A stretch of 64,000 nt of DNA from Planctomycetota bacterium (lineage in GTDB: Bacteria; Planctomycetota; Phycisphaerae; Phycisphaerales; UBA1924), in NCBI GenBank assembly GCA_014584315.1, contig JACTNA010000016.1, positions 19,566-83,565 of the forward strand, read 5' to 3'. The translations under genes were made by a program, and so were the position numbers. This document shows positions 49,618 through 64,000 of the stretch, in pieces. Under the pieces are notes generated by a model. That model made no database searches. It saw nothing but the letters and a program-made list of their open reading frames with translations, and was not told where the DNA came from. Within the stretch, counting starts at the first letter, position 1. Each line of letters opens with the position of its first letter.

Positions 49618-50808
49618 TCACGGGCCGACGAAGGCGTCGTCGGGGCCGTCGGGCAGTTCCCGCCCGGTCAGTCGGCCGCCGGACAACTGGTGGAGCACCC
49701 GCTCGAGCGACCTGGGGAGCCAGATGTTGTCGCCGTTGGGGAGGACGGGGCTGGCGTGCCACTCGGTCGCCCCGTCGTTGAAGAGCAGGTGCTGGCCTCG
49801 CCCGCCGTGGTTCGGCGTCGAGGCTTCGGGGTTCACCCGCTCGCCGCGGACGGCCCTCTGCACGACGGGGGATCGATCGGCCATGACGAGGACGCGGGTC
49901 CGATCGAGCCAGCGCGGCGTCTGGGGTCCGGAGATGACGCGGTAGGAGTACGACACCTCGTCGAGCGTCCGCCAGTCACGGTCTTCGGGGCTTGCGGGCA
50001 CGGTGGGTGCGTTCGGGTTGCCGGGGCAGGCGAGGCTTGAGAGCGAAAGGTACTTCTCGCGGGCGAGGGTGTAGAGGTTCGCGGAGTTGGAGCGGTCGGG
50101 GCCTTTGCCGACGTTCCACCAGGTGCCCCCTCCGTAGGAAGCGGTGACCATCGGGAGTGCGTTCTGGTTGAGGCTGGCGTAACCGCTCATGGCGTTGGCC
50201 GCGCCGTGCAGGTTGGCGGCGCAGGCGATGCGGCGGGCCTGATCTCGGACGGACGACAGGACGGGCCAGAGCACGGACGCGCCGATGAGCAGCACGGCGG
50301 CCACGGAGGCAACGTCGGCGAAACGGACGCGGCGCCGCGCGGCCCGCTCGAAGGCAAGGCTCTCGGCGTCGCGGTCGATCGTCGCCTGCACGAGGGCGAG
50401 CGTGCGATCGACGAGCGCCTCGCGGTCGCCAGCGTCGCAATGGCAGACGGCGTCCGCGAGCGCGCGGTGGCGTTCGGCCCTCGCCCGCATCGCCTGGGGG
50501 ACGAGCGAAGGATCGCCGTCGGCCTCGAGCCAGGCGTCGAGGGCCGCGGCATCGTCGGCGCAGAGGTGCGGCTCCAGGCCGAGCGCGTGTGCGAGCGTGT
50601 CCTCGACCAGCCTTGCGGATCCTGCGATCCCGGCATCGCGCAGGGGGTCGAGCAGCGCGACGATCCGTTCGGCGCGCCCCCGATGTTCGTCGGCGACCGC
50701 TTCAAGGTCGAATCCTGCATCCACGAGCGCGTCCAGCGCGGCGGCGTCCGCGGCGCTCAACGCCGGAGCGTGTTCACCATCGGCCGAGGCGTTTCGCGCG
50801 TCCTTCAC
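49618..50808 (-). CDS. Anti-sigma factor candidate with pseudopilin/DUF1559-like periplasmic domain
   Basis: GTG 50806-50808 forms a GTGA overlap with the ECF sigma stop. Single TM VASVAAVLLIGASVLWPVL, followed by SSVRDQARRIACAANLHGAANAMSGYASLNQNALP and C-terminal NHGGRGQHLLFNDGATEW (H-X10-DG). Confidence 0.75.
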   Translation of the reverse strand: MKDARNASADGEHAPALSAADAAALDALVDAGFDLEAVADEHRGRAERIVALLDPLRDAGIAGSARLVEDTLAHALGLEPHLCADDAAALDAWLEADGDPSLVPQAMRARAERHRALADAVCHCDAGDREALVDRTLALVQATIDRDAESLAFERAARRRVRFADVASVAAVLLIGASVLWPVLSSVRDQARRIACAANLHGAANAMSGYASLNQNALPMVTASYGGGTWWNVGKGPDRSNSANLYTLAREKYLSLSSLACPGNPNAPTVPASPEDRDWRTLDEVSYSYRVISGPQTPRWLDRTRVLVMADRSPVVQRAVRGERVNPEASTPNHGGRGQHLLFNDGATEWHASPVLPNGDNIWLPRSLERVLHQLSGGRLTGRELPDGPDDAFVGP

Positions 50809-51413
50809 CGGTCGTCCCCGTTCTGCGAAGCCTTCCACTTTCGGGCGAACGCGGCCACGGCGGCGTGCAGGCGCGACTTGACGGTGCCGAGCGGGATGCC
50901 GAGGTCGTCGGCGATCTGGGCGTAACTGAGCCGCTGGAAGTAGGCCAAGAGCAGGATCTCCCGCAGCGGCAGGGGCAGGTCGTCGAGGGCACGCTGCACC
51001 AGCCTGTCGCGTTCGCTCGCGTCGGCGGCGGCGTCCGGAGCGGGCACGTCGATCTCCATCAGATCGACGAACTGAACCCCCCCGCGCTCTTCACCGCCCC
51101 CCGCCCTTCCGACGGGGGCCGACAGTTCCATCTCCTGCCGGCGTCCCTTCCTACGCAGGTAGTCGCGGGCCTTGTTCGCGGCGATCGTGAATAACCAGGG
51201 ACGGAACCGCCGATCCACGTCGAACGAGTCGGCGGAGAGGTGAATCTGGAGAAAGGTCTCCTGGAAAACGTCGTCCGCGGCGGCCCGGTCGCCGGTCAGG
51301 CGGATCAGAAACCGGAGCAGGTCGTCGTGGTGGCGTTCGATGAGGGTCCGAAAGGCGTCCGACTCGCCCGTGCGGTAGGCCTCGACCAGTTGCTCATCGG
51401 TTCTGGGGTCCAA
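50805..51413 (-). CDS. ECF-type RNA polymerase sigma-70 factor
   Basis: TTG start. Region 2 DVFQETFLQIHLSADSFD..FRPWLFTIAANKARDYLRRK. Region 4 LSYAQIADDLGIPLGTVKSRLH. Confidence 0.88.
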   Translation of the reverse strand: MDPRTDEQLVEAYRTGESDAFRTLIERHHDDLLRFLIRLTGDRAAADDVFQETFLQIHLSADSFDVDRRFRPWLFTIAANKARDYLRRKGRRQEMELSAPVGRAGGGEERGGVQFVDLMEIDVPAPDAAADASERDRLVQRALDDLPLPLREILLLAYFQRLSYAQIADDLGIPLGTVKSRLHAAVAAFARKWKASQNGDDR

Positions 51414-51536
51414 TACGGCGTCGCTCCCCGGTGGTTCACCCGCGTCCGCGGCCCCTGCGGCCGTTTCGGATGCGCACGGGCAGTCTACGACGGGGGCGCG
51501 GAGCCTGATCGCCCGATTCCGACCGGCACCATCCGT

Positions 51537-51845
51537 TCAGACGACTTCGCCGACGGTACGGGCGAACCGGACCCCGGTCTCCGGCCCGAACCGCTCCGCG
51601 CCTTCGGCCCGGAGCGCGGGGGCGTGGTTGGCGAGGTAGTCGTCGAGGGCCTGCCGGGTGGGGAACACATAGCGCGTCTCGACGCGGATGGGGTCGGGCG
51701 GGTCGGTGACCCGGACGATCATCGCGCTGTGTGCCCCGGCGGCGACGACCGCGTCCACATGGCCGTCGCGGAGCCAGTCGAGATAGCGTTCGGCCGTCGG
51801 GCGGTCCGGGAGCGTCGCGGTTACGGTGTAGACGATGGCGGACAT
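51537..51845 (-). CDS. DUF4286-family protein
   Basis: MSAIVYTVTATLPDRPTAERYLDWLRDGHVDAVVAAG...YVFPTRQALDDYLANHAPALRAEG. Confidence 0.7.
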   Translation of the reverse strand: MSAIVYTVTATLPDRPTAERYLDWLRDGHVDAVVAAGAHSAMIVRVTDPPDPIRVETRYVFPTRQALDDYLANHAPALRAEGAERFGPETGVRFARTVGEVV

Positions 51846-51924
51846 GCCCCGAGCCTACCGCTCCCGGCCGCCGGACGGCGGCGAGGGGGCAATTCGGTCG
51901 GGCCTGGGGCGTTCTGCGGACGGC

Positions 51925-52548
51925 ATGCCACCCGCCTTGGAGCGAAGCGACCCGGCGACGGGCGTCGCCCCTGACGACGGGCGGCTGGCCGAGGTTCTGG
52001 CCGCGGCTTCACGCGGCGATGGGGACGCCTGGCGCGAGATCGTGGACCTGTACGCCAGGCGAGTGTTCGCGCTGGTCCACAGCCGGTGTCGTCGGCCCGA
52101 TCTGGCCGAGGAGGTCACGCAATCCGTGTTCGCCACAGTCGCCGCCAAACTCTCCCGAGGGGGGTACACCGAGCGGGGCCGCTTCGAGTCGTGGCTCTTC
52201 CGCGTGGCGATGAACCGCGCGCGTGACGAGATGCGCCGGCTGGCCCGGCAGGCGACGCCGACGGACCCGTCGGCGGTTGCGGCGGCCGTGGACCGCGCGC
52301 GGGAGAACGGGGAACGGACGAGCGACGACGGCTCGCTCGATGCGCTGCGGCGTGCGATGTCGAGCCTTCCCGCGGCCGACCGGGAGGTGGTCGAGTTGCG
52401 GCACCACGGCGGGCTGAGTTTCAGGCAGATCGCGGACCTCGTCGGCGAGCCGATGGGCACGCTGCTGGCCCGCCACCACCGGGCGTTGCGGAAGCTGCGG
52501 TCGATGATCGAACGCGATGCACCCGCGGACGAGGAGCAGACTCGATGA
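51925..52548 (+). CDS. ECF-type RNA polymerase sigma-70 factor
   Basis: ATG 51925; the listed start at 51835 would overlap the divergent gene. GDGDAWREIVDLYARRVFALV, FESWLFRVAMNRARDEMRR, LSFRQIADLVGEPMGTLLARHHRALRKLR. Confidence 0.85.
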   Translation: MPPALERSDPATGVAPDDGRLAEVLAAASRGDGDAWREIVDLYARRVFALVHSRCRRPDLAEEVTQSVFATVAAKLSRGGYTERGRFESWLFRVAMNRARDEMRRLARQATPTDPSAVAAAVDRARENGERTSDDGSLDALRRAMSSLPAADREVVELRHHGGLSFRQIADLVGEPMGTLLARHHRALRKLRSMIERDAPADEEQTR

Positions 52549-52964
52549 ACGCGCACGACAACAACGAGTTCGCCGGGATCGAGACCGCGCTCGACCGACT
52601 CGCGGAGTCGGATCGGGCGGCCGCGCCGGCGTCGCTCGAGTCGAACGTCTACCGTGCCTCGCGGGCGTCGCTCCGTTCGGGCGGGTGTGCGCGGGTTCGG
52701 ATCGGATGGGGACTGGGGGTTCGGCTCGCCGCGGCCGCGGTGCTGCTGGCGGGGACGATCGGCGTCATCTCGACACTGAACCGAGCGGGCCCGCAGCCCA
52801 CGCCGACGGCGAACGTGACGGCGGCGGCATTCGAGTCGTGGCTGGCGCTGGACGATCTGTTCGACGACGGGTTCGGGACGCGGCTGGGCGTGGTTTCGAC
52901 CGATGCCGACCGGCTCGCGCAGCCGGATTCGGATGACTGGGACGACCTGGAGGACGCTCTGTGA
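52545..52964 (+). CDS. Putative anti-sigma factor / membrane protein (139 aa)
   Basis: ATGA overlap with the sigma stop. Central TM GLGVRLAAAAVLLAGTIGVI. Acidic C-terminus. Confidence 0.6.
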   Translation: MNAHDNNEFAGIETALDRLAESDRAAAPASLESNVYRASRASLRSGGCARVRIGWGLGVRLAAAAVLLAGTIGVISTLNRAGPQPTPTANVTAAAFESWLALDDLFDDGFGTRLGVVSTDADRLAQPDSDDWDDLEDAL

Positions 52965-53782
52965 TGCGACACCGTGCTGCCACATTGCTGATCGTGATCG
53001 CGGGAGCGGCGCTTCCGGCGAGCGCCCAGCCGGATCGCCCGGCGCGCGAGGACCGGCCCGTGATGCGTCAGGCGGACCGCGAGGCGATGCGAGAGAGGCT
53101 TCAGCGTCGGCTTGACGAAACGCGTCATTTGGAGCAACGGCTCCTGGCGGCGCTGGACGCGCTGGACCGGGGCGAGGAACCGCCGGCGGTCGCCGAGCCG
53201 GGCGGGCCGATGCGCGGGGAGTGGCAGCGCGGACGCCCGTTCGAGCAGGAGCAACCGGCGGGCGGGGCGCCCCCCCCCGCGACGGACGAGGAAGTGATGG
53301 CGTTCCTGGACTCGGCCGCGCCGCCGATCGCTCGCAGGCTGCGTGAGGTGCGCGAAGCCGAGCCGTGGGTGGTCGAGCGGACGGTGCGACGGCTGGCGGG
53401 GCGGGTGGCGGAGATCCGTGTCGCCCGCGAGCACGATCCCGCGCTGGCGGACCTGATGGTCGCCGAGACGCGGAGCGGGCTGCTCGTGGCCGATGCGTTG
53501 CGCGACGTGCACCGCGCCGTGCTGGGCGGTGGCGACGAGGGCGCGTTGCGGGCGGCGTCGGCGTCGCTTCGGGGAGCGCTCGAAGCGCAGTTCGACGCGC
53601 GCATCGAGCGGCGCGAGCACGAGATCGTGTCGCTGGGCCGGCGCATCGAGGAGCTGCGGGCGGAACTCACGCGGCAGCACGCGGAGCGCGAGGCGTTCAT
53701 CGACCGCGCGGTCGAGCAGGCCGTCGAGCGCGCGAAGCGGTCGTCCTCGCGTCCCGACGAGCCTCGCGGCGGACGGCGCTGA
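52961..53782 (+). CDS. Secreted helical (coiled-coil-like) protein, third gene of the ECF module
   Basis: GTGATG start overlapping the upstream stop. Signal peptide MMRHRAATLLIVIAGAALPASA. Arg/Glu/Ala-rich helical remainder. Confidence 0.6.
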   Translation: MMRHRAATLLIVIAGAALPASAQPDRPAREDRPVMRQADREAMRERLQRRLDETRHLEQRLLAALDALDRGEEPPAVAEPGGPMRGEWQRGRPFEQEQPAGGAPPPATDEEVMAFLDSAAPPIARRLREVREAEPWVVERTVRRLAGRVAEIRVAREHDPALADLMVAETRSGLLVADALRDVHRAVLGGGDEGALRAASASLRGALEAQFDARIERREHEIVSLGRRIEELRAELTRQHAEREAFIDRAVEQAVERAKRSSSRPDEPRGGRR

Positions 53783-53791
53783 GACGCGCCG

Positions 53792-54187
53792 TCACGACAC
53801 GACCGATCCAGGCGCGACCTCCGCCGACGGGGTCAGCACGACGACCCGCTTCGATTCGCCTTCGCCCTGCTCGCTCGCCGCCAGGAGCATGCCGCGCGAC
53901 TCCTCGCCGCGGATGGTGCGCGGGGCGAGGTTGGCCACGATCACGATGTGACGCCCGACGAGGTCCTCCGGCTTGTAGTGCTCGCGGATGCCGGCGCAGA
54001 TCTGCCGCGGCGTGCCGCTGCCGTCGTCGACCTGGAGTTTCAGAAGGCGGTCGGCGTTCGGGTGCGGCTCGGCCGTCACGACGCGGGCGACGCGCAGGTC
54101 GAGGCGGGCGAAATCCTCGAAGGTGATGGTGGGCTTGGCGGGCGATGCCTGAGTCGTGTCGGCGGCAGGCGCGGGCGTGTCGGACAT
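53792..54187 (-). CDS. tRNA-binding domain protein (CsaA/Trbp111/MetG C-terminal-like)
   Basis: FEDFARLDLRVARVVTAEPHPNADRLLKLQVDDGSGTPRQICAGIREHYKPEDLVGRHIVIVANLAPRTIRGEESRGMLLAA. Confidence 0.88.
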   Translation of the reverse strand: MSDTPAPAADTTQASPAKPTITFEDFARLDLRVARVVTAEPHPNADRLLKLQVDDGSGTPRQICAGIREHYKPEDLVGRHIVIVANLAPRTIRGEESRGMLLAASEQGEGESKRVVVLTPSAEVAPGSVVS

Positions 54188-54256: not shown

Positions 54257-55150
54257 CTACTCCTCCGGGCCGGGCCTTACCCAAGCGCCGCCACGCCACA
54301 GACTTCGGTCGGGATCGACGCCGAGCGAGGCGGCGAAGGTCTCGGGGTCGAGGTCGCGGAGCGGCGCGCCGCCGTCCACGGCGAGTTGTGCCGCCCATGA
54401 GCGGTGAACGCCCTCGAGCAGGCGCGATTCGAGCCGCAACTGGTCGATGAGTTCGGCGGCGGACATCTGCGGGCCGGGATCCCCGCGGCAGGTGGCGCAG
54501 AGTCGGTAACTGGGCGGGTCGGTGCCGGGCACGAACACGGCCCGCTCGTTGCGGCACTCCGGGCAGGGCCAGGCGTCGGCGTATCGCTCGGTGTTCCAGA
54601 GGACGCTGCCAGCGCCGGCGAGTCCGACCAGCCTCCCGTAACGCTCGAGCGCCTCGCGGACGCCCGGCCTGCGCAACAGTTCCCGGGCGCGGATGCCCTG
54701 CCCGGCGCGTGCCTCGCCCATCGCCTCGGCGGCCGCGAGCGCGATCTCGGATCGGAGGGCTTCGTCGCGGCCGCGCATCCACTCGGGCGCGGCGTAGCGT
54801 CGATCGAGGCGGCTTGCCATCGCCGAGAGCCAGCGCTGCTCGGACTCCACTCGGGCGATCGCGGCCAACCCGACGCACGCGCTCGCGCCAACCCCGGCCG
54901 ACCAGTTGTGCCGGCGATCGTGCTCGAAGGCGAGGGCGTAGAGCGTGCGCGCCAGTTCGATCTGGACGGGATCGTCGGCCTCGTAGGCAACTTCCTCCGC
55001 GAGCATCAGGTAGCCGCGCGGGTCGGAGGGTGTGAGTGCGGCGAGGCGCTCTTCGAGGCGCGGAACCGTGAGCGTCGTGAGCGTGCTCGGTTGATCCGGC
55101 TGAGCCAGAGCGACGGCGACGCCAAGGACGGCCGCGTCGAGGATGCTCAT
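54257..55150 (-). CDS. Secreted hypothetical protein with CPxC...CxxC zinc-ribbon-like motif (297 aa), last gene of the ExbBD-associated operon
   Basis: Internal ATG 55148-55150 (ATGA overlap with the upstream stop). MSILDAAVLGVAVALAQP signal-like N-terminus. WPCPECRNERAVFVPGTDPPSYRLCATCRG (54488-54565). Confidence 0.65.
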   Translation of the reverse strand: MSILDAAVLGVAVALAQPDQPSTLTTLTVPRLEERLAALTPSDPRGYLMLAEEVAYEADDPVQIELARTLYALAFEHDRRHNWSAGVGASACVGLAAIARVESEQRWLSAMASRLDRRYAAPEWMRGRDEALRSEIALAAAEAMGEARAGQGIRARELLRRPGVREALERYGRLVGLAGAGSVLWNTERYADAWPCPECRNERAVFVPGTDPPSYRLCATCRGDPGPQMSAAELIDQLRLESRLLEGVHRSWAAQLAVDGGAPLRDLDPETFAASLGVDPDRSLWRGGAWVRPGPEE

Positions 55151-58020
55151 GGGAGTTCCTCCCCGAAACGGATCGCCCAGAGTCGGGCGATCGCGAGTTC
55201 CGTCGCGGCGATCTGGTGGAGCACGTGGGTTGCGGTCCGTCGCGTGCCCGCCAGTTCGGAGAGCACGCCGGCGGCGTCGGCTGCGCGCTCGGGACGCTCG
55301 ACCGCGATCACGGCCGAGAGGAGCTCGGCGACGGCGAGCTGCTCGACGGCGAACCGCTGGACGGGGCCGCCCGCGACGGCGAGCCTCGCGGTGCGGCGGC
55401 GTTCGATCTCTTCGGCGCGCACCACGCCGGAGCGGCCTGCGGAAAGATCCGCGGCGAGTTGCTGCCACTGGGCGCGGAGTCGGGCCGCGCTCTCGTCGGC
55501 GGCGGCGGGCGTGCCATCGGCGGAGGATGGCGCGAGGGACGAGGAGGCCATGCCCGCGTAGGTTTCCGCGAGCAGCGGAGCGAGGCGGTCGACGCGCCCC
55601 ACCTCTCCTTCGGCGGCGAGCAGTTCCATCAGACGCTCGACCAGCACGCGCCGGGTCTTGAGTTTCCAGTCCGGATCGCGGACGGACACCACGCTCGTGC
55701 CCGTCATCTGTGCCACGAGTTCCGCGTTCTGGATCGTGCGGGGCATCGTGGGCGCCTGTTCGAGGAGGCCCTTGAGGGCCGAGGCGTTCATACGGAGCGC
55801 GAGCAGGGCGTCTCGGGCGGCCTGGCGGACCTGCGCGGGCGAGCCTCGCACGGCCTCCTGCGCCAGCACCTCGCCGCTGATGGGGTCGAGGATCGAGCCA
55901 CCGCCCAGTTCGCGGAGGAGGGCGACGCGGGCATCGGCGTCGCGCTGGGCCGAGGCGTACCGCACGGCCCATGCTCCGTCGTAGCGTCCCGGCGCGACGA
56001 CGGCCTGATCGCCGACGCTGCCGCGGACGGTTTCCATCGCGTCCTTGACGGGCGCATCGAGCCTGTCGATGAGCAGGGCGGCGGCGTCGAGTCCGCCCGA
56101 CCAGCGCAGCGAAGCGGCGGCGTTCAGCCGGGCCGCGAGCACGGCGCGGGCGAGATGATCGGTCGGCGTGCGGTCGTCGTGCGCATCGCGCTCGACGCGG
56201 CGCAGTTGCTGGAGCCACGAGTCGGCGAGGTCGTCGCGCTGGGCGGCGGTCGGCAGGCCCCACGCCGTCTCGTACCTGTTCCGCAGGTCGCGCCGCTGCG
56301 CGTCGATCGACCGGGCGGGCAGCGACATGAGCGGGTCGACGCCTTCGGCGTTCGATCTCGTCGCGAGCGCGGTCGTGATGACGTGCAGATCGGCGTTCGA
56401 GACGCGCGGATTGCCGAAGGCCTGAACGAGCCACGTTCGCGACCGATCGCCCCGCCGCCACGTGAGGGCGAGGGTGAGTTCGACCATCGCGTCGGCGATC
56501 GCGGGGTCAACGTCCGGCTCCGGCCCCGCGAGGGTGATCGCGTCGAGGCCGGCGAGCAACAACTCGATCCGGCGGGCCTGCTGCTCCGGCGCGGCGGCGT
56601 CGACCGCGCGGACCCACCGCCGCCAACGCTCGAGTTCCGTGTCGCGGTCGGGACGATCGCCCAGCACGAACCGCCGGGGCAGCAGACCGAGCGCGGCGAC
56701 CGCGCCGGCGTCGAAGGTGCGCCCCGCGGCCGGGCCTGCGCCCCCGATCGCCTGACGGAGCGCATCCTCAATGACTCGCGACACCACGGCGGACAACCCG
56801 CTCTCCCCGCTCAACCGCACGAGCGTGCCGGCCGACCAGACCGCCGGCCACACGCCGTCCGCGTCCGGGGCCGCGCCTCCGTGCATCGCCACCGAGCCGG
56901 CGGCGACCACTTCCGCAGCGGCGGAGGCGATGAGCGGGACGGCGGACGCGCTGTGCATGAACTCGACCACCGAGTTGGTGGCCGCTCGCTGGCGATCGGG
57001 CGCGAGCAGGCACCAGTGGGCCGCAACATCCAGCGCTGACGAACGGAAGAGGGCGAGCGCCTCGCCGGGGTCGAGCGCGAGGCCATCGACCGCGGCGTCG
57101 AGACCGCGCAGCGCGGCGTTCAGTTCGGATGCGGACGGGGCGCCCGTCGGGCGCGGCCGGGCGTCGCTCGTCACGCTCGGTCTCAACGGGAACGGCTCGA
57201 CTCGTGCAGGCTCCGCGGACGCCCGTGCGGGCGGCGGCGGGGGAGGCGGGTCCGGCGGCGTGCGCGGCACGGTCAGCAGGATGGCGGCGAGCGATCCGAG
57301 CACGGCCAGCGCGACGAACCCGCCAATGAGGACGAACACACCGCGACGGAGCAACCGTTTCGCCGGGTCGTCCTCCTCGGGCCGGACCATCTCTGGCGGG
57401 CGGGGATCGGCGGGCCGCGGAGGCTCGTCGGCGAGCGGTTTCGGCAGGCCCGCAAGCCGAACGGGAACAGGCGGCGAGTCGGCGCGAAGCGCGGGCACGG
57501 GCGCGGGACGCGGCACGGCCCGAGCGCTCGCGGCGCCGCGGCTGCTGAGCCGACGCAGCGCACCGACGATTTCGTCGGGCGACGCGTCGCGAGCGCGGGC
57601 CAGGAGCATCAGGCGGTGCAATGACCCCCGGTTCCACCCGCCGTAGCGTGCGAGCGTGAGCAGCGCATCGTGTTCGAGGAGGACGCCGCGTCCGGCCTCC
57701 GAGGTCGGCGCGGCGAGCGCGGCCTGCTGCGCGGCGGCCTCGCCCCCCCACCGCCGCGCGAGGTGCACGCGAACAGCGGGGTCGAGCAGTTGGGCCGCGG
57801 CGGCGTGGAGCGCGAGGCGCACTTCGTCTGCTTCGGGCGTCTCGCTCTGGTGGTGGGCGGCGAGCGCGACGAGGCGGCGCTCCAGAGCCGCGATGACGGC
57901 CGAGTCGTCGGCCACGCCCGGCCTCAGCCCGAGCAGCGCGAACGGACCGCCGCGGGCCGAATCCTCGCCGAGGAAGCGGGCGATGAGCGAAGCGCCGGCG
58001 GGGTGCGGCATCGCGCTCAT
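55147..58020 (-). CDS. 957-aa bitopic membrane protein with TonB/TolA-like TM plus poly-Pro spacer, hypothetical
   Basis: Internal ATG 58018-58020 (ATGA overlap with the upstream stop). About 225-aa cytoplasmic part with the J-domain-like PFALLGLRPGVADDSAVIAALERRLVALAAHH. TM GVFVLIGGFVALAVLGSLAAILLTV followed by PRTPPDPPPPPPPARA (57223-57342). About 690-aa helical periplasmic part. Confidence 0.7.
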   Translation of the reverse strand: MSAMPHPAGASLIARFLGEDSARGGPFALLGLRPGVADDSAVIAALERRLVALAAHHQSETPEADEVRLALHAAAAQLLDPAVRVHLARRWGGEAAAQQAALAAPTSEAGRGVLLEHDALLTLARYGGWNRGSLHRLMLLARARDASPDEIVGALRRLSSRGAASARAVPRPAPVPALRADSPPVPVRLAGLPKPLADEPPRPADPRPPEMVRPEEDDPAKRLLRRGVFVLIGGFVALAVLGSLAAILLTVPRTPPDPPPPPPPARASAEPARVEPFPLRPSVTSDARPRPTGAPSASELNAALRGLDAAVDGLALDPGEALALFRSSALDVAAHWCLLAPDRQRAATNSVVEFMHSASAVPLIASAAAEVVAAGSVAMHGGAAPDADGVWPAVWSAGTLVRLSGESGLSAVVSRVIEDALRQAIGGAGPAAGRTFDAGAVAALGLLPRRFVLGDRPDRDTELERWRRWVRAVDAAAPEQQARRIELLLAGLDAITLAGPEPDVDPAIADAMVELTLALTWRRGDRSRTWLVQAFGNPRVSNADLHVITTALATRSNAEGVDPLMSLPARSIDAQRRDLRNRYETAWGLPTAAQRDDLADSWLQQLRRVERDAHDDRTPTDHLARAVLAARLNAAASLRWSGGLDAAALLIDRLDAPVKDAMETVRGSVGDQAVVAPGRYDGAWAVRYASAQRDADARVALLRELGGGSILDPISGEVLAQEAVRGSPAQVRQAARDALLALRMNASALKGLLEQAPTMPRTIQNAELVAQMTGTSVVSVRDPDWKLKTRRVLVERLMELLAAEGEVGRVDRLAPLLAETYAGMASSSLAPSSADGTPAAADESAARLRAQWQQLAADLSAGRSGVVRAEEIERRRTARLAVAGGPVQRFAVEQLAVAELLSAVIAVERPERAADAAGVLSELAGTRRTATHVLHQIAATELAIARLWAIRFGEELP

Positions 58021-60719
58021 GGCGACCCCTTCCCGTCGGTGGTCGGCGTCGGCGCGGGAGGCAGTGCGGCGTCGAGTTCGCGCAGTTTCGCGCCCCACGG
58101 CTCGGGGCCGAACTGCGGGAAGAGCGTCTTGTGCTGGTCCAGCACGATGCGGGCGCGGGGGGCATCGGTCGCGGCGAGCAGGCGGAGGGACTCGCAGCGT
58201 GCCTCGAACCACTCGTCGCTGCCCTGGGCGAGGCCGGCGAGCAGCGTGCGCCAGCCTTCCAGCGCGGCTTCGGCGTCGCCCGCTTCCTCGCTCAGGCGCG
58301 AGTAGCGGCGCAACGAGCGTGCGGTGTGCCTACCGAGATCGATCAGGCGTGCGTCGAGACGCAGGGCGGCGTCGCGAGCGGCCTCGTCGCGCTCCAGCCG
58401 CCAGAGCGCGTCGGCGGCGTCCGCGATCGCCTCGACGAGCGACGAGACCTGCTGGTTGGAGATCGACGACTCGATCGGCTCGAATCCCGCGAGAATGCGC
58501 GATCCGAAGCGCACGACTTCCCGCGCCGCGTAGGCGTCGTCGGGATTGGCCCGGCGCTGCTCGAGCGCGACCCGGTACACGAGGCGGTCGGCGGCCTCGG
58601 CGAAGCGGCCCCCGATCTCCTGGAGTCGGCGCGAGGCGGCGTCGATCCTGGGACGGTCGCGGTGAACCAGCGCGATCTGGAGTCTGCGGTACTCGATCTC
58701 CTCCTCCAGGGCGTCGAGATTGAGGCCGAGATAGGCACGGACCTCCTCCAACGTGGTCAACGCGCGCTCGGCGCGGCGCACGTCGGGCGCGGCGGCGGAC
58801 ATCAGCACGTCGAGCAACTGCCGGACGCGGAGCACGATGAAATCGGCGGCCTCGCCCGCTTCGACCGGCGTGCCGTTCATCACGGTCCATCGGTCGCGCT
58901 CGATCAACTCCTCGGCGACGGCGGCGAACCGCGCGGCCATCGCCCCGCGATCGGCGGGACGGGCGACGCGGCACTGCGTGTAGAGCAACCTCGCCGCGTG
59001 CCGACGGGCCGTGTCGTAGAGCGCGGACTCTCGCGGCACGGCGAGCAGCACCTCGATGGCCTCGGCGTCGTCGATCAAACCTCCCTCGACGCGGCGCAGA
59101 AGGAGCCTCGCGGCGCGCTCGGTCCTCGGGAACGACTGGAGGAACACGCCGGCAAGGCGGTCGCGCCGCGGGACGAGCGACAGCCGCCCCCCCTCGACGG
59201 CCCGATCGAGCGCGACGATGGCGTACCAGAGCGCTTCCTGGCGATCGTCCTCGCTCGGCGCGAGCGAGGCCGCGACCTCGTAGGCGTCCGCCGCCGGCTC
59301 CGGCTCCCCCGCGTAATAGAGCGACAGTCCGCGGAGCAGCGCGGCTCGCGCTCGTTCCTTCGGGAACTTGCTCGCGTCCTGAGCGTCCACGCCGAGCAGG
59401 AGCGCACGGGCGGCCTCGCGGTAGCGATTCGCGACGGCCTCGTCGGCGGTCGGGGCCTCGCCGTCCTCGCCGGCCTTGGCGTGGTTCTCGCGGGCTCGCT
59501 CGTAGGCGCGCAGGCCGCGCACGAACTGGACGATGAACCCCTCGTTGCCGATGGGCGCGGTGCCGTAGCGTCCGACGAGGTCGATCACGTGGCCGACCTC
59601 GCCGCGCGCGACGAGGTCGCCGAGCGCCGTCTGGGCGAGCGTCTCCAGGAGGCGGTCACGCCCGGCGAGACCGCGTGCCTTGGGATCGTCGAGCGCTTCG
59701 AGCACGACGACGGCGAGCAGTCTGGCGTCGGCGGTTTCGAGGCGCGTCTCGCTCGCGTCCCCGCCGCGCCGAGCGCGGGCGATCATCAGGTCGAGGTCCG
59801 CCCAGCGGCGGGCGGCGCCGAGGACCGCGATGCGTCGCGTGAAGAGTTGCCTGCGGACGGACTCGGGCACCTCCGGCGATTCGACGAGCACGTCGAGCCA
59901 GCGCACGGCCTCGACGTCCTTGCCCTGCACCGAGGCCGCGAGCGCAACGCCCATCGCGGCGCGGGCGACGTGCTCGAAGCGCAGGAGCGGCGCGGGCAGG
60001 CGCTCGACGGTCGGCTCGCGGTTGCCGGGTGCGTTCAGGAGCCAGCCGAAGTCCCGCTTCGCCTGTTCGGCGAGGCGCACGTCGCCGCTGACAAGGGCGA
60101 GGTAGTAGCGCGACCAGCCGGCGTAGTACATGGCGAGCGATCGGAGCCGGCGCGCGTCCGCGAGTTGCTCCTTGACGGCCTGCGGGTCGGGGTCGCTGCC
60201 CCGCGACTCGCGGCGTTCGAGCGACTCGACGCGCCGATGGACCTTCGTGCCGGCGTCCTCGAAGATCGGCAGCACCGAGCGCAGCACGCGCTCCGCCTCG
60301 CTTCGCTCCTCGGGGCCGGCGATGCGGAGCCGGTGCAGTTCGGCGAGTTCCTCGCCCTTGAGGTACGACGCCTTGGCGAGATTGATGCGGAGCTCGAAGG
60401 ACTCCGAGTCCGGCACCTTGAGCAACAGTTCACGGCTGAGCGCCTCGGCACGAGCTCGCTGCTCGGGTGTGGCCGCATCGGTGAGCAAACGCACGTAGAG
60501 GGTCCCGAGGCGCTCGGCGATGGCGATCCGCTCGTCGCCGAGCGTCGAGTCGAGACGCTCCTGCAGGCGGGCGGCGAGCAGGTCGGTCAGCCCGCGATCG
60601 GCGAGATAGCGCTCGACGGCGTCCTCGCCCGCCGATTCGGGCTGCGCCGCGGCCACGCCCGCGACGAGCGCGAGGAACGCGAGGAGGACCGCGAGGATGG
60701 CGTCAGTTCGCCGGCACAT
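58017..60719 (-). CDS. 900-aa secreted helical-repeat (TPR-like by composition) protein, hypothetical
   Basis: Internal ATG 60717-60719. Signal peptide MCRRTDAILAVLLAFLALVAGVAAA. Long Ala/Leu/Arg/Glu-rich helical repeats (e.g. RSLAMYYAGWSRYYLAL, RGLSLYYAGEPEPAADAY). The listed N-terminal extension is Ser/Pro junk. Confidence 0.7.
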   Translation of the reverse strand: MCRRTDAILAVLLAFLALVAGVAAAQPESAGEDAVERYLADRGLTDLLAARLQERLDSTLGDERIAIAERLGTLYVRLLTDAATPEQRARAEALSRELLLKVPDSESFELRINLAKASYLKGEELAELHRLRIAGPEERSEAERVLRSVLPIFEDAGTKVHRRVESLERRESRGSDPDPQAVKEQLADARRLRSLAMYYAGWSRYYLALVSGDVRLAEQAKRDFGWLLNAPGNREPTVERLPAPLLRFEHVARAAMGVALAASVQGKDVEAVRWLDVLVESPEVPESVRRQLFTRRIAVLGAARRWADLDLMIARARRGGDASETRLETADARLLAVVVLEALDDPKARGLAGRDRLLETLAQTALGDLVARGEVGHVIDLVGRYGTAPIGNEGFIVQFVRGLRAYERARENHAKAGEDGEAPTADEAVANRYREAARALLLGVDAQDASKFPKERARAALLRGLSLYYAGEPEPAADAYEVAASLAPSEDDRQEALWYAIVALDRAVEGGRLSLVPRRDRLAGVFLQSFPRTERAARLLLRRVEGGLIDDAEAIEVLLAVPRESALYDTARRHAARLLYTQCRVARPADRGAMAARFAAVAEELIERDRWTVMNGTPVEAGEAADFIVLRVRQLLDVLMSAAAPDVRRAERALTTLEEVRAYLGLNLDALEEEIEYRRLQIALVHRDRPRIDAASRRLQEIGGRFAEAADRLVYRVALEQRRANPDDAYAAREVVRFGSRILAGFEPIESSISNQQVSSLVEAIADAADALWRLERDEAARDAALRLDARLIDLGRHTARSLRRYSRLSEEAGDAEAALEGWRTLLAGLAQGSDEWFEARCESLRLLAATDAPRARIVLDQHKTLFPQFGPEPWGAKLRELDAALPPAPTPTTDGKGSP

Positions 60720-61119
60720 ACGTCCGCTTCGTGAAGCCCGCGTCAACGCCGGCCTGGAGCGCCACCGCCGCGGCGTCCCAGGGCACGTCGCCGGAGACCC
60801 GGATGAAGACGCCGCCGTCCTTGGGCAGTTCGCGCAGGACGGCGACGAGTTGGCCGCGCTCGGTGAGCACGTGCTGGCCGATGCGGAAGACCGGGGCCGT
60901 CCCGGCCATCTCGACGCGGACGATCTGGGGTTGGAGGTCCGCGGCCGCTCCGCCGCGGCGTTCAGCGGCGAGCGCGCTGCCGACCTGGGACTCGCGCTTG
61001 GTGAAGGTCGTGGTGACCATGAAGAAGATGAGGAGGAGGAAGACAACGTCGATCATGGTGGTCATGGGCAGCCGCCCGATCTCCTCGCCTTCGCGCTCTG
61101 TGGGTCTCGTGAGTCTCAC
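60703..61119 (-). CDS. Biopolymer transport protein ExbD/TolR family (copy 2)
   Basis: GTG start (GTGA overlap). PMTTMIDVVFLLLIFFMVTTTF is the ExbD TM signature. Confidence 0.88.
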   Translation of the reverse strand: MRLTRPTEREGEEIGRLPMTTMIDVVFLLLIFFMVTTTFTKRESQVGSALAAERRGGAAADLQPQIVRVEMAGTAPVFRIGQHVLTERGQLVAVLRELPKDGGVFIRVSGDVPWDAAAVALQAGVDAGFTKRTYVPAN

Positions 61120-61550
61120 GGGGGCCCTCCCGGAACGTCGGCGGTGCCGACCTGCCAGCGTCGCACGCCGAGGGCCGCGAGCCGATCCACCAGATCATTG
61201 ACCGTCGCGGCACGGGCGGCGCGGTCGGCGCGGATGAGCAGCTCGACGGCCGCGGCGTCGCCGCCCCGCTTGGCGATCTCGGCCTGGAGCGTGCGGACCG
61301 CGCCGTCGAGCGAGACCGGCTCGTTCGCGATGAGGATCGTTCCGTCGCGGCGGACGTCCACGACGACCAGGCCGGAAGCGACGGCGGCGTTCTTCTCGCC
61401 CGGCTGTTCCGGCAGGTCAATGGGCGAACGGATGAGTTGCGAAAACTGGGAAGTGAAAAGAAAGAAGATGATGAGTTGCAGCACCACGTCGATCATGGGC
61501 GTCAGATCGAAGCCTCGCTGCTTGCGTCCTGTCCGGGGCGACAGGTTCAT
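61116..61550 (-). CDS. Biopolymer transport protein ExbD/TolR family (copy 1)
   Basis: Internal ATG 61548-61550 (ATGA overlap). GFDLTPMIDVVLQLIIFFLFTSQF. Confidence 0.88.
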   Translation of the reverse strand: MNLSPRTGRKQRGFDLTPMIDVVLQLIIFFLFTSQFSQLIRSPIDLPEQPGEKNAAVASGLVVVDVRRDGTILIANEPVSLDGAVRTLQAEIAKRGGDAAAVELLIRADRAARAATVNDLVDRLAALGVRRWQVGTADVPGGPP

Positions 61551-62308
61551 GCCGTGCCGACTCCGGTGCGTGGGCGCGGGGCGGGCTTGGCGGCTGGCTG
61601 TGTCGCTCCGGGCGCGGATGCTCCGGCGCTCTCGAGGTGCGAGGCGAGATCGTCGATGGTGCGTCCGATCTCCTGAGCCATGGCGTCGATCCGGTTGCGG
61701 AGCCAGGCGTAGGCGGCGGTGCACGGGATCGCGACGATGAGGCCCATGACGGTGGTGATGAGCGCGACGGAGATGTCGCCCGCGAGCTCATCCGGCCGCG
61801 CGACGCCCTCGCTGGTGCTGAGGGTATCGAACGCGCCGACCATGCCCACCACGGTGCCCAGCAGCCCGAGCATCGGCGCGACCGTGGCGATCAGCCCGAT
61901 GGATTCGGTCGACCGCTGGAGTTTCGACACCTCCTGCTGGCCGGCTTCCTCGAGCGCGGAGCGCAGTTCGAGGAATCCGAAGGCCGAGCGGCGGCATCGG
62001 AGCAATGCCGCCCCGAACACGCGCGTGAGGAACGAGCCGTTCTCCTCGGCGGTGCAGTAGGCGATCGTGCCCTCCGTGTCGCTGGCCCGCAGCATCTCGT
62101 GCAGGCGGGCGACGTGAACGGCCGGGGCGAGGTGCTTCATGCGAAGGCGGACCACCTGCGCGATGATGAGCACCACCGCGACGAACGAGAGGGCGATGAT
62201 CAGGAAACCGACCTGCCGCCCCTGCGAGATGTAGTCCAACAGCGACTTGTCGGCCGCGGCGTCCTGGGCGAGCGTGAACAGGCCGGGCACGAGCGTGGAG
62301 TGGGTCAT
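61547..62308 (-). CDS. MotA/TolQ/ExbB proton-channel family protein
   Basis: Internal ATG 62306-62308 (ATGA overlap). IGLIATVAPMLGLLGTVVGMVGAF and DISVALITTVMGLIVAIPCTAAYAWL. Confidence 0.9.
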   Translation of the reverse strand: MTHSTLVPGLFTLAQDAAADKSLLDYISQGRQVGFLIIALSFVAVVLIIAQVVRLRMKHLAPAVHVARLHEMLRASDTEGTIAYCTAEENGSFLTRVFGAALLRCRRSAFGFLELRSALEEAGQQEVSKLQRSTESIGLIATVAPMLGLLGTVVGMVGAFDTLSTSEGVARPDELAGDISVALITTVMGLIVAIPCTAAYAWLRNRIDAMAQEIGRTIDDLASHLESAGASAPGATQPAAKPAPRPRTGVGTA

Positions 62309-63447
62309 CGTCGAACGGTCTCCGTTGGAAGGGGGTCGGCCGCGGCCTGCTCGCGGGGCGCCTCGCCGTGGCGGCGGATGGCGTCCCAGTCGCAGGCGGG
62401 ATGCCCGGCGAATCGGGTGAGGAGTTCGGCGCGAAGCCTCGACGCCCCGCCCGCGTCGCCCAGCGATTCGAGGGCGACCGCGGCGTCCGCGAGGGCGATG
62501 CCCGCGAGGTAGGGCAACTCGCGTTCGAACGAGGCGGGGACGGTGAGGAGTTCGATCACGCCCAACCGGCGCGCCGAGTCGTCCGGTTCCATGAGCAGCG
62601 AGCGACCCACGCCGAGCCGCGCCCACGCCTGCTGCCATGACGGTGCGCTCGGGTCCAAGAACGGCGCGAGCGACGCTCGCGCGGCGGCGCGGGCCGCGGT
62701 GTCGGTCGCTGTCGTTGCGGTGACGATGTGCAGGACGAACTCGACCCCCGGCTCGCGCGAGGTGACGGCCGGCATCTCGGCTTCGACGCGCGACGCTGCG
62801 CGTGCCGCGTGCAGATACAGGGCGGCGTATGCCTCGGCACGGGTGGAGTACGGCGCGCGTGCGGTGAGGGAACCGCCGGTCGCCAGAACGCGGACCGCCG
62901 GGCCTGGCACCCACAACGGGGGCAGGTCGGCGACGAGGCCGGTCTCCGCGTCGACGACGGATCCGAGTGCCGTGTCGGCGCGGACGGCGGGCGTGCCGCT
63001 CGACTCCCGGGCGCGGAGCCAGGTGATCCACGGCGCGACGGCGAGAGACTGTGCGCTGCGTGCGAGGCGGCACCGCAACAGGCCGAAGGCGATGCGCTCG
63101 CCCGTGGGGCCGCGGTTGTCGTGCATCGACTCGAAGAGTTCCTCGAACAGCGGCTCCGCGCCGGGGACGTCGCCCCGTTCGAGTCTGGCCCTCGCTCTCC
63201 AGGCCCGTTCCGCCATCGGCATGTAGGCCTCGGCGATGGCGGCGTGCTCCCCGCGCACGGCGAGCACCGTGTCCCACGGCACGACAACCGGGGAGGCGCC
63301 GCCGTCGCGAACCGCGATGCCGTCCGACGAGACGGCGACGATGACGCCGGGGGGCAGCGTCGCTCGCCCGCGCAGGGTCAGGATCGGCTCGTCGGCGCGT
63401 GCGGCGGCGGTGAGGGCGATCGCGGCGATGCAGCCGAGGCGGATCAC
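62305..63447 (-). CDS. Secreted hypothetical protein (380 aa)
   Basis: Signal peptide MIRLGCIAAIALTAAARA. ATGA overlaps on both sides. I recognise no motif. Confidence 0.65.
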   Translation of the reverse strand: MIRLGCIAAIALTAAARADEPILTLRGRATLPPGVIVAVSSDGIAVRDGGASPVVVPWDTVLAVRGEHAAIAEAYMPMAERAWRARARLERGDVPGAEPLFEELFESMHDNRGPTGERIAFGLLRCRLARSAQSLAVAPWITWLRARESSGTPAVRADTALGSVVDAETGLVADLPPLWVPGPAVRVLATGGSLTARAPYSTRAEAYAALYLHAARAASRVEAEMPAVTSREPGVEFVLHIVTATTATDTAARAAARASLAPFLDPSAPSWQQAWARLGVGRSLLMEPDDSARRLGVIELLTVPASFERELPYLAGIALADAAVALESLGDAGGASRLRAELLTRFAGHPACDWDAIRRHGEAPREQAAADPLPTETVRR

Positions 63448-64000
63448 GGCCCACCCCCCGCGACGAAGGTGTAGGTGCCGCCGGACTCGCGCGCGATGCG
63501 CCGCATGAGCGGCTCGGCGTCGCGCGAGACGAAGCAGATGCAGTGGATGGGGACGCGATGCTCGGCGTTGAGGCGCTCGATCTCGCCCGCGACCTGTTCC
63601 GGAAACTCGCCGTCGGTCATGAAGAAGATGGCGTCCGGCCGCGGGCGCAACTGGAAGGCCAGGTGGAAGGCCGGTCCGGGATTGGTGCCCCCGCCGGACT
63701 GGATGGCCATGATCTCTCGGCGCGACGACCGCTTGTTTCGCTCGTTGGCCTGGAGCCAGCGGACCTCTTCTCCGAGCGGGGTCGCGCTGGTGGAGAACGT
63801 GATGGGGAGGTAGTGGGCGTTCTCGAGCAGGCCGTCGATGGACTTGGCCAGTTCGTCGCGGAGGCGTTCGATCTTGCCGCCGAAGCTCATCGAGCCGGAG
63901 ATGTCCACGATATAGACGAATCGCGAGCCTGTGGCCTCCGCGCCGAAGAAGCCGGCACCCCCCGCGCCTCCGCCGCCCTCGCCCATGCCCGGCCCGCTGC
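63444..64000 (-). CDS. von Willebrand factor type A (VWA) domain protein, 5' end probably beyond the window
   Basis: MIDAS residues FVYIVDISGSM, GGGTNPGPAF, IFFMTDGE. The frame is still open at 64000, so the listed ATG at 63986 (within a Gly-rich stretch) need not be the true start. Confidence 0.8.
   Translation of the reverse strand, partial: SGPGMGEGGGGAGGAGFFGAEATGSRFVYIVDISGSMSFGGKIERLRDELAKSIDGLLENAHYLPITFSTSATPLGEEVRWLQANERNKRSSRREIMAIQSGGGTNPGPAFHLAFQLRPRPDAIFFMTDGEFPEQVAGEIERLNAEHRVPIHCICFVSRDAEPLMRRIARESGGTYTFVAGGGP

Follow-up and report, generated by a model that had tools for sequence, protein, structure and literature searches.

A membrane-spanning protein with a J-domain-like head is a candidate adaptor of a vWA/TolQR-type envelope system in Phycisphaerales

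The force transducers TonB and TolA are recognized by a transmembrane (TM) helix with an SHLS motif or histidine, a strand called the motor box, a proline-rich or helical domain II and a small C-terminal domain, as set out in the accessible text of PMC12204202. The same text (Williams-Jones et al., Mol Biol Evol 2025) describes TM-anchored vWA proteins with the SHLS motif, encoded beside tolQ-like, two tolR-like and TPR genes, in bacteria of the PVC (Planctomycetes, Verrucomicrobia and Chlamydiae) group. According to the accessible text of PMC11761067, the TolQR-like motor in the Agl-Glt system of Myxococcus xanthus has two TolR-like subunits that differ from each other, and the system further includes a vWA protein and large TPR proteins of the periplasm. 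Its GltJ and GltG proteins are bitopic: each places a large head in the cytoplasm, crosses the membrane with a single TM helix and continues into a long disordered segment in the periplasm. The structural model presented there has GltJ connect the platform on the cytoplasmic side with a periplasmic TPR protein and predicts for it no binding to the motor. Here we analyze an operon with such parts in a 64,000-nucleotide stretch of DNA from a Planctomycetota bacterium of the order Phycisphaerales (assembly GCA_014584315.1, contig JACTNA010000016.1, positions 19,566 to 83,565 of the forward strand; hereafter the window). Our subject is a gene in this operon for a 957-residue protein, which the original prediction, made from the sequence alone, took for an analogue of TonB or TolA with a J-domain-like cytoplasmic head. 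We propose, in a reading to which we give about even weight, that this protein is a trans-membrane adaptor (N-in, C-out) of a Phycisphaerales vWA/TolQR-type envelope machine and not its TonB-like arm.

The operon lies on the minus strand, with its genes in the following order:

63444..64000, minus strand: C-terminal part of a TM-anchored vWA protein of 316 aa, cut by the window end (Pfam VWA_3; full gene taken from the genome)
62305..63447, minus strand: 380-aa secreted protein of unknown family (GC3 frame, signal-peptide-like N-terminus, conserved in the loci, no Pfam or NCBIfam match)
61547..62308, minus strand: ExbB/TolQ-like protein, 253 aa (Pfam MotA_ExbB, E 4.9e-29)
61116..61550, minus strand: ExbD/TolR-like protein 1, 144 aa (Pfam ExbD, E 2.1e-17)
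60703..61119, minus strand: ExbD/TolR-like protein 2, 138 aa (Pfam ExbD, E 2.9e-13)
58017..60698, minus strand: 893-aa secreted protein with helical repeats, corresponding to the gene labeled "TPR" in such loci (signal-peptide-like N-terminus; translationally coupled to the 957-aa gene)
55147..58020, minus strand: the 957-aa protein, a bitopic inner-membrane protein (open reading frame, translation, GC3, homologues)
54257..55150, minus strand: orfZ, a secreted protein of 297 aa with four conserved cysteines, C196, C199, C218 and C221 (GC3 frame, translation, homologues, alignment A3, complex model)

The published vWA loci of PMC12204202, as far as its accessible text describes them, have the same parts: a vWA protein with an S-x3-H motif, a TolQ-like protein, two TolR-like proteins and a large helical gene labeled TPR. 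The gene order here differs from the PVC order of that paper, and the 957-aa gene is an extra gene and not a described member. Neither it nor orfZ nor the 380-aa protein appears in the main text or in the searchable supplement's account of these loci (figure 4a lies outside this comparison), and the mentions of a J-domain or dnaJ in the supplement text concern flanking genes of proteobacterial tol loci. Full-text searches of the literature found no paper on the family of the 957-aa protein. For the 893-aa protein, Pfam gave no TPR match at E<=1, and the TPR label is unconfirmed.

The window is about 72% G+C and for this reason holds many spurious open reading frames (ORFs). G+C content by codon position identified the frame at 55147-58020 as coding, with a value of 0.84 at third positions (GC3). 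The initial methionine is kept in at least 90% of 64 homologues, which makes it the common start of the family. At both ends the 957-aa gene shares an ATGA with its neighbor, its own ATG running into the stop of the upstream gene and its stop into the ATG of the downstream gene. A longer ORF with a GTG start, reaching 58212, is unnecessary as an account of the start. We collected 138 homologues, and a profile search with the protein matched 1012 representative proteins (50% identity clusters) at E<=0.001, 748 of them at E<=1e-30. Searches of Pfam and NCBIfam with the whole protein and its parts gave no family match, Pfam finding neither TonB_C nor any other domain at E<=1; the ESM Atlas look-alike search returned no usable match, and no paralogue was found in the same genome. 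We conclude that this is a real, conserved membrane protein of Phycisphaerales bacteria.

We examined its gene neighborhood in 80 loci from species-level genomes labeled Phycisphaerae, Planctomycetota or (one) Planctomycetaceae, all fetched with the peptide ADEVRLALH. The 893-aa gene adjoins the 957-aa gene in every one of the 80, and of the 70 loci whose DNA continues beyond the latter, 69 hold orfZ. Where upstream DNA is available, ExbB-ExbD-ExbD lies directly upstream in 63 of 72 loci, and one more has ExbD-ExbD and is cut before ExbB. The predicted link to ExbB and ExbD is thus borne out by operon linkage in 64/72 loci. Within the window, the 380-aa gene and the ExbB gene are joined by an ATGA overlap. 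An ORF that would encode a 635-aa "long ExbB" (61547-63454, minus) is a high-GC artefact, since GC3 resolves it into two frames, those of the 380-aa and 253-aa genes.

To describe the architecture of the protein we used an AlphaFold2 model of its full length, built on 64 homologues, with a mean predicted local distance difference test score (pLDDT) of 84.3. In the model, residues 12-164 form a helical N-terminal region, disorder spans 162-219, and the TM helix (220-249) is followed by further disorder, rich in proline (250-296), and then by about 33 helices (297-951). Combined with hydropathy and conservation, it gives the following layout:

57736..57993, minus strand: J-like domain, residues ~10-95 (model pLDDT >90, Foldseek, VIA-align, hhalign)
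57520..57699, minus strand: second cytoplasmic helical subdomain, residues 108-167, with a conserved GGW at 127-129 (model helices 110-164)
57364..57519, minus strand: disordered cytoplasmic linker, residues 168-219 (pLDDT <50 over residues 162-219; low conservation)
57268..57342, minus strand: single TM helix GVFVLIGGFVALAVLGSLAAILLTV, residues 227-251 (hydropathy maximum 2.56; model helix 220-249)
57133..57267, minus strand: proline-rich disordered periplasmic linker starting PRTPPDPPPPPPPARASAEP, residues 252-296 (pLDDT, proline content)
55150..57132, minus strand: periplasmic all-alpha repeat (solenoid-like) domain, residues 297-957 (~33 helices, no strand, pLDDT mostly >90)

Open reading frame, GC3, hydropathy and model thus confirm the protein of 957 residues, with a head, one TM helix, a proline-rich spacer and a helical periplasmic part, that had been read from the sequence. 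The range 57223-57342, previously given for the TM helix and spacer, holds the TM helix with the first 15 residues of the linker, and 706 residues follow the helix. Over most of the linker pLDDT is about 43-51 (below 50 at residues 251-253 and 265-286), and no secondary structure is modeled. In the 60 residues that follow the TM helix the proline content is 20% (range 8-42%), compared with 6.9% over the whole protein (family means over the 64 homologues). P271 and P276 are kept in at least 90% of homologues, and the linker holds a short conserved P...P / [LV]FP element.

The best reading of the topology, and a supported one, is N-in, C-out. No N-terminal signal peptide is found in the protein. 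Across the 64 homologues, the 15 residues before the TM helix hold on average 2.31 lysines and arginines and the 15 after it 1.14, with more before in 44, fewer in 7 and a tie in 13. Net charge shows no bias (-0.23 vs +0.06), and a positive-inside tendency is present only in the count of lysine and arginine. The cytoplasmic, co-chaperone type of fold of the head and the predicted binding of a secreted protein by the C-terminal domain point the same way. The absent signal peptide and the basic residues also support the topology first described, with about 225 cytoplasmic residues, one TM helix, a proline-rich spacer and a periplasmic helical domain.

This layout recalls TonB and TolA in that a TM helix is followed by a proline-rich periplasmic spacer in a gene near exbB and exbD, and the linker does have the proline-rich feature of domain II. 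The likeness does not extend to the TM motif or to the C-terminal domain. A TM segment is present in all 64 homologues, but it lies inside the chain, after 226 residues, and has no conserved column; histidine occurs in it in one of the 64, and an S-x3-H motif in none. As to the motor box, AlphaFold2 models no strand in residues 250-296, but pLDDT is below 50 there. There is no TonB_C (PF03544) match at E<=1, and residues 297-957 are modeled as helices only, which agrees with the earlier remark that roughly 690 periplasmic residues lack a TonB_C signature. Searches of the genome, which is 97% complete, found no TonB_C, no Plug and no TonB-dependent barrel, and for this reason the motor does not feed classical TonB-dependent transport.

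The hallmarks missing from the 957-aa protein are found in the vWA protein at the start of the operon. This 316-aa protein consists of a TM helix, a linker and a vWA domain. Its TM helix carries histidine in all 53 homologues and S-x3-H in 51 of them, and in the aligned matches a conserved, hydrophobic, strand-like segment follows the helix, as judged by eye. From these sequence features the vWA protein is likely the TonB-like force transducer of the operon; because its TM helix carries the histidine and the S-x3-H motif, it appears to take the TonB-like place. With a histidine in one of 64 TM helices, an all-alpha C-terminus without TonB_C, and a neighbor that already has the hallmarks, the 957-aa protein is not supported as an analogue of TonB or TolA, and the conserved histidine or serine looked for in its TM helix is not there.

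The protein could still be a second force transducer, energized by ExbB and ExbD through a non-canonical contact of its TM helix with the motor, its linker and solenoid carrying force alongside the vWA protein. The TM helix followed by a linker with 20% proline, the conserved P...P / [LV]FP element, the linkage to ExbB/ExbD and the lack of TonB_C in the genome all suit this idea. So do motor systems with two bitopic proteins, such as Agl-Glt with GltG and GltJ (PMC11761067, accessible text), and a Tichowtungia locus that the searchable supplement of PMC12204202 describes with two transducers. We nevertheless consider it unlikely, given a TM helix with no conserved residue, a linker in which no motor-box strand is modeled, at low confidence, a C-terminal domain that is a 650-aa helical repeat and not a small globular head, and a vWA protein with all the motor-binding hallmarks. 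Even for GltJ, the nearest counterpart that has a head in the cytoplasm, the accessible text of PMC11761067 predicts no binding to the motor.

GltJ and GltG are themselves the nearest working analogue that we found. Like them, the 957-aa protein is bitopic, with a cytoplasmic head, one TM helix and a disordered periplasmic segment, in a system with a TolQR-like motor. The statement that a large cytoplasmic domain is foreign to TonB-like proteins was consequently too strong, as the TM helices of GltG and GltJ lie at residues 330-348 and 385-405 (PMC11761067, accessible text). The heads differ, being FHA or ZnR plus GYF in GltJ and GltG and J-like here, and so do the C-termini, which are small and resemble the TonB C-terminal domain in those proteins but form a 650-aa helical repeat in this one. 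We found no sequence similarity between the 957-aa protein and GltG or GltJ, and its all-alpha C-terminus is not of the GltG/GltJ type; the analogy is one of architecture only.

We turned to the head. A separate structure model of residues 1-170 (pLDDT 85.5) was searched with Foldseek and, independently, with VIA-align. Foldseek returned from the PDB a list made up almost wholly of J-domains at E-values of 0.15-3, for example 2ctp (target-normalized TM-score, TMt, 0.67), 2och (root-mean-square deviation 2.8 Å over 62 columns, TMt 0.70) and 5nro_B, the J-domain of DnaJ bound to DnaK (TMt 0.75). Among 48,161 chains, VIA-align ranked J-type domains in all of places 1-15, with Z 7.0-8.0 over 63-82 aligned residues; the matches fall within model residues 1-147, mostly 24-95, at deviations of 2.4-8.5 Å (2.4-3.8 Å in 12 of the 15). 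Since Z values of 7-8 are common for small helical domains, the weight of this evidence lies in the uniformity of the list. Further down, at Z 6.1, stands 2guz_B, chain B of the Tim14-Tim16 complex entry. By sequence, hhalign aligned the family profile with 22 canonical J-domains from related genomes over 68 columns at E 4.6e-4 and a probability of 33%, in the correct register, with the conserved histidine of the family on the histidine of HPD. In the loop between helices II and III of the J-domain-like fold, HHQ (57847-57855) replaces HPD. A search of PDB sequence profiles with the N-domain gave only a short match to a TAF9 histone fold (E 0.14), which we took as chance.

The most conserved part of the whole protein is helix III of the head, ADEVRLALH (residues 64-72, at 57805-57831). 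Of 231 family proteins, 150 carry the exact peptide and 190 a loose form; that the peptide is invariant in alignment A2 is partly circular, because those loci were fetched with it. At the HPD position of the 190 proteins with the helix III motif, the first residue is histidine in 184 and the third is aspartate in 6, the commonest forms being HPE (60), HPQ (33) and HAE (23), with a single true HPD. None of the 64 sequences of alignment A1 has aspartate at the third position. Taken together, the two fold searches, led by J-domains for residues 24-93, and the HHQ at the HPD site support a head with a J-domain-like fold that lacks HPD, in keeping with the resemblance first noticed in the N-terminus. 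In the second subdomain G128 and W129 are invariant in alignment A2, and VIA-align found for it only generic three-helix or winged-helix-like matches (Z 5-6.5).

Membrane-anchored proteins with a J-fold domain and a degenerate HPD include ARC6/ZipN and Pam16/Tim16, and ARC6 has a further domain across the membrane. The 957-aa protein shares with them an HPD-less J-like domain on a membrane-anchored protein, but it has no sequence relation to them, and they serve organelle division or protein import without a TolQR-type motor. In J-proteins of the DjlA type, too, a J-type domain is anchored on the cytoplasmic side of the inner membrane; DjlA differs in its true HPD, in a TM helix at the N-terminus and in lacking a large periplasmic domain.

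A J fold at the membrane raises the alternative that the protein is a membrane-anchored co-chaperone of the DjlA/Sec63 kind, whose head recruits DnaK for making or repairing envelope proteins while the periplasmic domain only selects the site or client and the motor is uninvolved. The genome has two Hsp70 genes, nearly all members keep the histidine at the HPD site, most have glutamate or glutamine as the third residue, and a few have a true HPD, all of which fit such a role. Yet the aspartate is missing in 184 of 190 members, Pfam recognizes no DnaJ domain, conservation is strongest in helix III and not in helix II plus HPD, and the gene is in tight synteny with the vWA and motor genes. Some lineages, moreover, drop the J-like domain and keep the rest of the protein and its place in the operon. 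We regard a plain co-chaperone as improbable.

These head-less variants emerged from the distribution of the family. A stricter first look at the phylum found the protein in at least 6 of 301 genomes, all of one family, and a class sample searched with the head found it in at least 7 of 151. Among the matches listed for the sampled genomes, it occurs only in its own taxonomic family and in one diverged member of a sister family. This diverged member (L131, in genome G014, L131:8849-12658) lacks the J-like domain and keeps the GGW subdomain, TM helix, proline-rich linker and solenoid, between vWA-like and orfZ-like genes. A further locus, L132, encodes a protein with no recognizable head that keeps the TM helix, the proline-rich linker, the solenoid and the position in the operon. 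Because both drop the J-like domain and keep the rest, we regard TM helix, linker and solenoid as the core of the protein and the head as an addition to it. The linker of L131 is rich in proline and threonine and much longer, in a locus of 76% G+C with an unclear ORF map. Candidate stand-alone forms of the head amount to 16 short matches; at least three carry a partial label, and several come from contigs no longer than about 1 kb. These are probably gene fragments and not a family of small free proteins.

On the other side of the membrane, fold searches with the full-length model gave no specific relative for the periplasmic domain. The matches were generic helical repeats (AP2, importins, beta-catenin, Nup170 and designed repeat proteins) of HEAT/ARM or designed type. 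TM-scores stayed near 0.1, and nothing but a designed helical barrel scored as high as Z 16. As both searches return only generic helical-repeat proteins we call the domain solenoid-like, and the absence of a specific relative is not evidence of a new fold.

A candidate partner for this domain is the product of orfZ, whose gene is translationally coupled to the 957-aa gene by an ATGA overlap. Homologues are present in 69 loci, many with classic signal peptides, and orfZ has no Pfam or NCBIfam match. We modeled residues 297-957 of the 957-aa protein together with mature orfZ (residues 20-297), using our own alignments. The complex reached an ipSAE interface score of 0.70, while the best of three controls scored 0.00. 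Runs agreed in at least 88% of contacts, with a partner pLDDT of at least 79. Solved complexes reach the mark applied to the score in 116 of 157 cases and mismatched pairs in 2 of 215, counts that are approximate because our own alignments were used. The modeled interface on orfZ comprises residues 102-277, and that on the 957-aa protein maps as follows:

55213..55977, minus strand: predicted orfZ-binding surface, residues 682-936 (complex-model interface)

Conserved columns, defined as at least 80% identical, are enriched at the interface on both sides: 18/61 vs 70/600 on the 957-aa protein (odds ratio 3.2, p 4e-4) and 24/60 vs 42/218 on orfZ (odds ratio 2.8, p 1e-3). The model and this enrichment support binding of orfZ by the C-terminal third of the solenoid. 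We know of no similar complex.

Other observations concern orfZ itself. Its CPEC...C-x-T-C pattern could be a zinc ribbon or two disulfides. In the window, the n-region of its signal peptide has no basic residue, unlike that of many homologues. A different ORF at 54277-54990 is in the wrong frame by GC3 and is not the downstream gene, which is orfZ at 54257-55150.

In the mechanism that we favor, that of a trans-membrane adaptor, the ExbB/ExbD/ExbD motor would be coupled to the vWA protein with its TonB-type S-x3-H TM motif. The periplasmic helical domain of the 957-aa protein would act as a docking platform, its C-terminal third predicted to hold the secreted Cys4 protein orfZ and the remainder probably engaging the 893-aa helical protein, and the proline-rich linker would give this platform reach into the periplasm. 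The J-like head, with HP[E/Q] for HPD and a strongly conserved helix III, may tie the periplasmic assembly to a cytoplasmic partner. The most plausible one would be Hsp70, an obvious candidate because the J fold fits, the histidine is kept, glutamate or glutamine stands for aspartate, and two Hsp70 genes are at hand. The protein would work like GltJ or GltG of Agl-Glt without being homologous to them, and we infer its link to motor activity.

Several points weigh against this reading. In 8 of the 72 loci the 380-aa gene leads straight to the 893-aa gene, with the motor genes outside the operon. Searches by tblastn of five of these eight genomes found an ExbB gene elsewhere in each, with ExbD-like matches alongside it in three loci. 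The tie of the 957-aa protein to the 893-aa protein and orfZ is consequently tighter than its tie to the motor. The modeled complex covers orfZ only, and its score is the confidence of the model itself and not a measurement. The assignment of the head has its own difficulties: Foldseek matches are weak by E-value (0.15 or worse), Z values of 7-8 are frequent among small helical domains, the hhalign probability is just 33%, and Pfam DnaJ (PF00226) matched none of 57 aligned N-domains at E<=1. A PF00226 scan of the genome found four other genes and not this one. The near-universal loss of the aspartate argues against a classical co-chaperone cycle and makes stimulation of Hsp70 doubtful. Finally, the whole vWA system is a computational prediction.

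A bolder version of the adaptor is an Agl-Glt-like trans-envelope machine with two energy inputs. Proton-driven ExbB/ExbD would act on the vWA arm, and the J-like head would recruit a cytoplasmic ATPase of the Hsp70 type or another actin fold, whose action would reach through the membrane to the platform of solenoid, orfZ and 893-aa protein. We think this a long shot. If it were true, a chaperone cycle in the cytoplasm would regulate or drive an assembly that lies beyond the inner membrane.

It is very improbable that the protein is a trans-membrane signaling protein, anti-sigma-like or a sensor, that reports the state of the periplasmic complex to the two extracytoplasmic function (ECF) sigma factors encoded 2.6-4.3 kb downstream (50805-51413, minus; 51835-52548, plus) and syntenic in many loci, as the head is J-like and matches no anti-sigma domain, and a gene with a tRNA-binding domain and another gene lie in between.

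The surroundings of the operon have features of their own. A 131-aa protein with a tRNA-binding domain (Pfam tRNA_bind; 53792-54187, minus) follows orfZ in most related loci; it exceeds the NCBIfam cut-off of the model for the C-terminal domain of MetG and falls short of that for CsaA. Beyond it lies a 343-aa ORF (52649-53680, minus) for which Pfam and NCBIfam gave no match and tblastn matches came from the three closest loci alone. By GC3 the coding frame appears to change within this ORF, which leaves its gene model uncertain. A DUF4286 gene stands between the two ECF sigma genes, which are encoded on opposite strands (50805-52548), and the group is syntenic with the operon in many related loci. 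At the other end, just upstream of the vWA gene and beyond the window, stands a gene for a 647-aa S49 (SppA-like) peptidase (C6:85603-87558 in the same genome; L001:40-1983 in a close relative). A second TolQ/ExbB-like gene lies about 21 kb beyond the window end (C6:104908-105645) with no ExbD adjoining, and it may belong to the class of "TolQ plus trans-pore-helix vWA" in the accessible text of PMC12204202. A lone ExbD gene is found at C1:49272-49637, and a third gene of the MotA/ExbB family, on C16, looks like flagellar MotA.

The vWA/TolQR systems date from a prediction of 2025, and a full list of their parts is a first step to testing their function. In one Phycisphaerales lineage the system has the 957-aa protein, orfZ and the 380-aa protein as constant partners, none of which the published description mentions in its searchable text. 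The motor thus poses a question about the cell envelope of bacteria that have neither TonB nor TonB-dependent receptors and, beyond this operon, just one TolQ-like gene lacking ExbD and one lone ExbD. A J fold that has kept its histidine and lost its aspartate, on a protein with a large periplasmic domain, offers a useful case for the function of bacterial J-like domains. The 957-aa protein would be an undescribed adaptor subunit of a motor system of the Ton/Tol/Agl type and, as the only product of the operon with a folded cytoplasmic domain of its own, the most likely point of its cytoplasmic connection or control.

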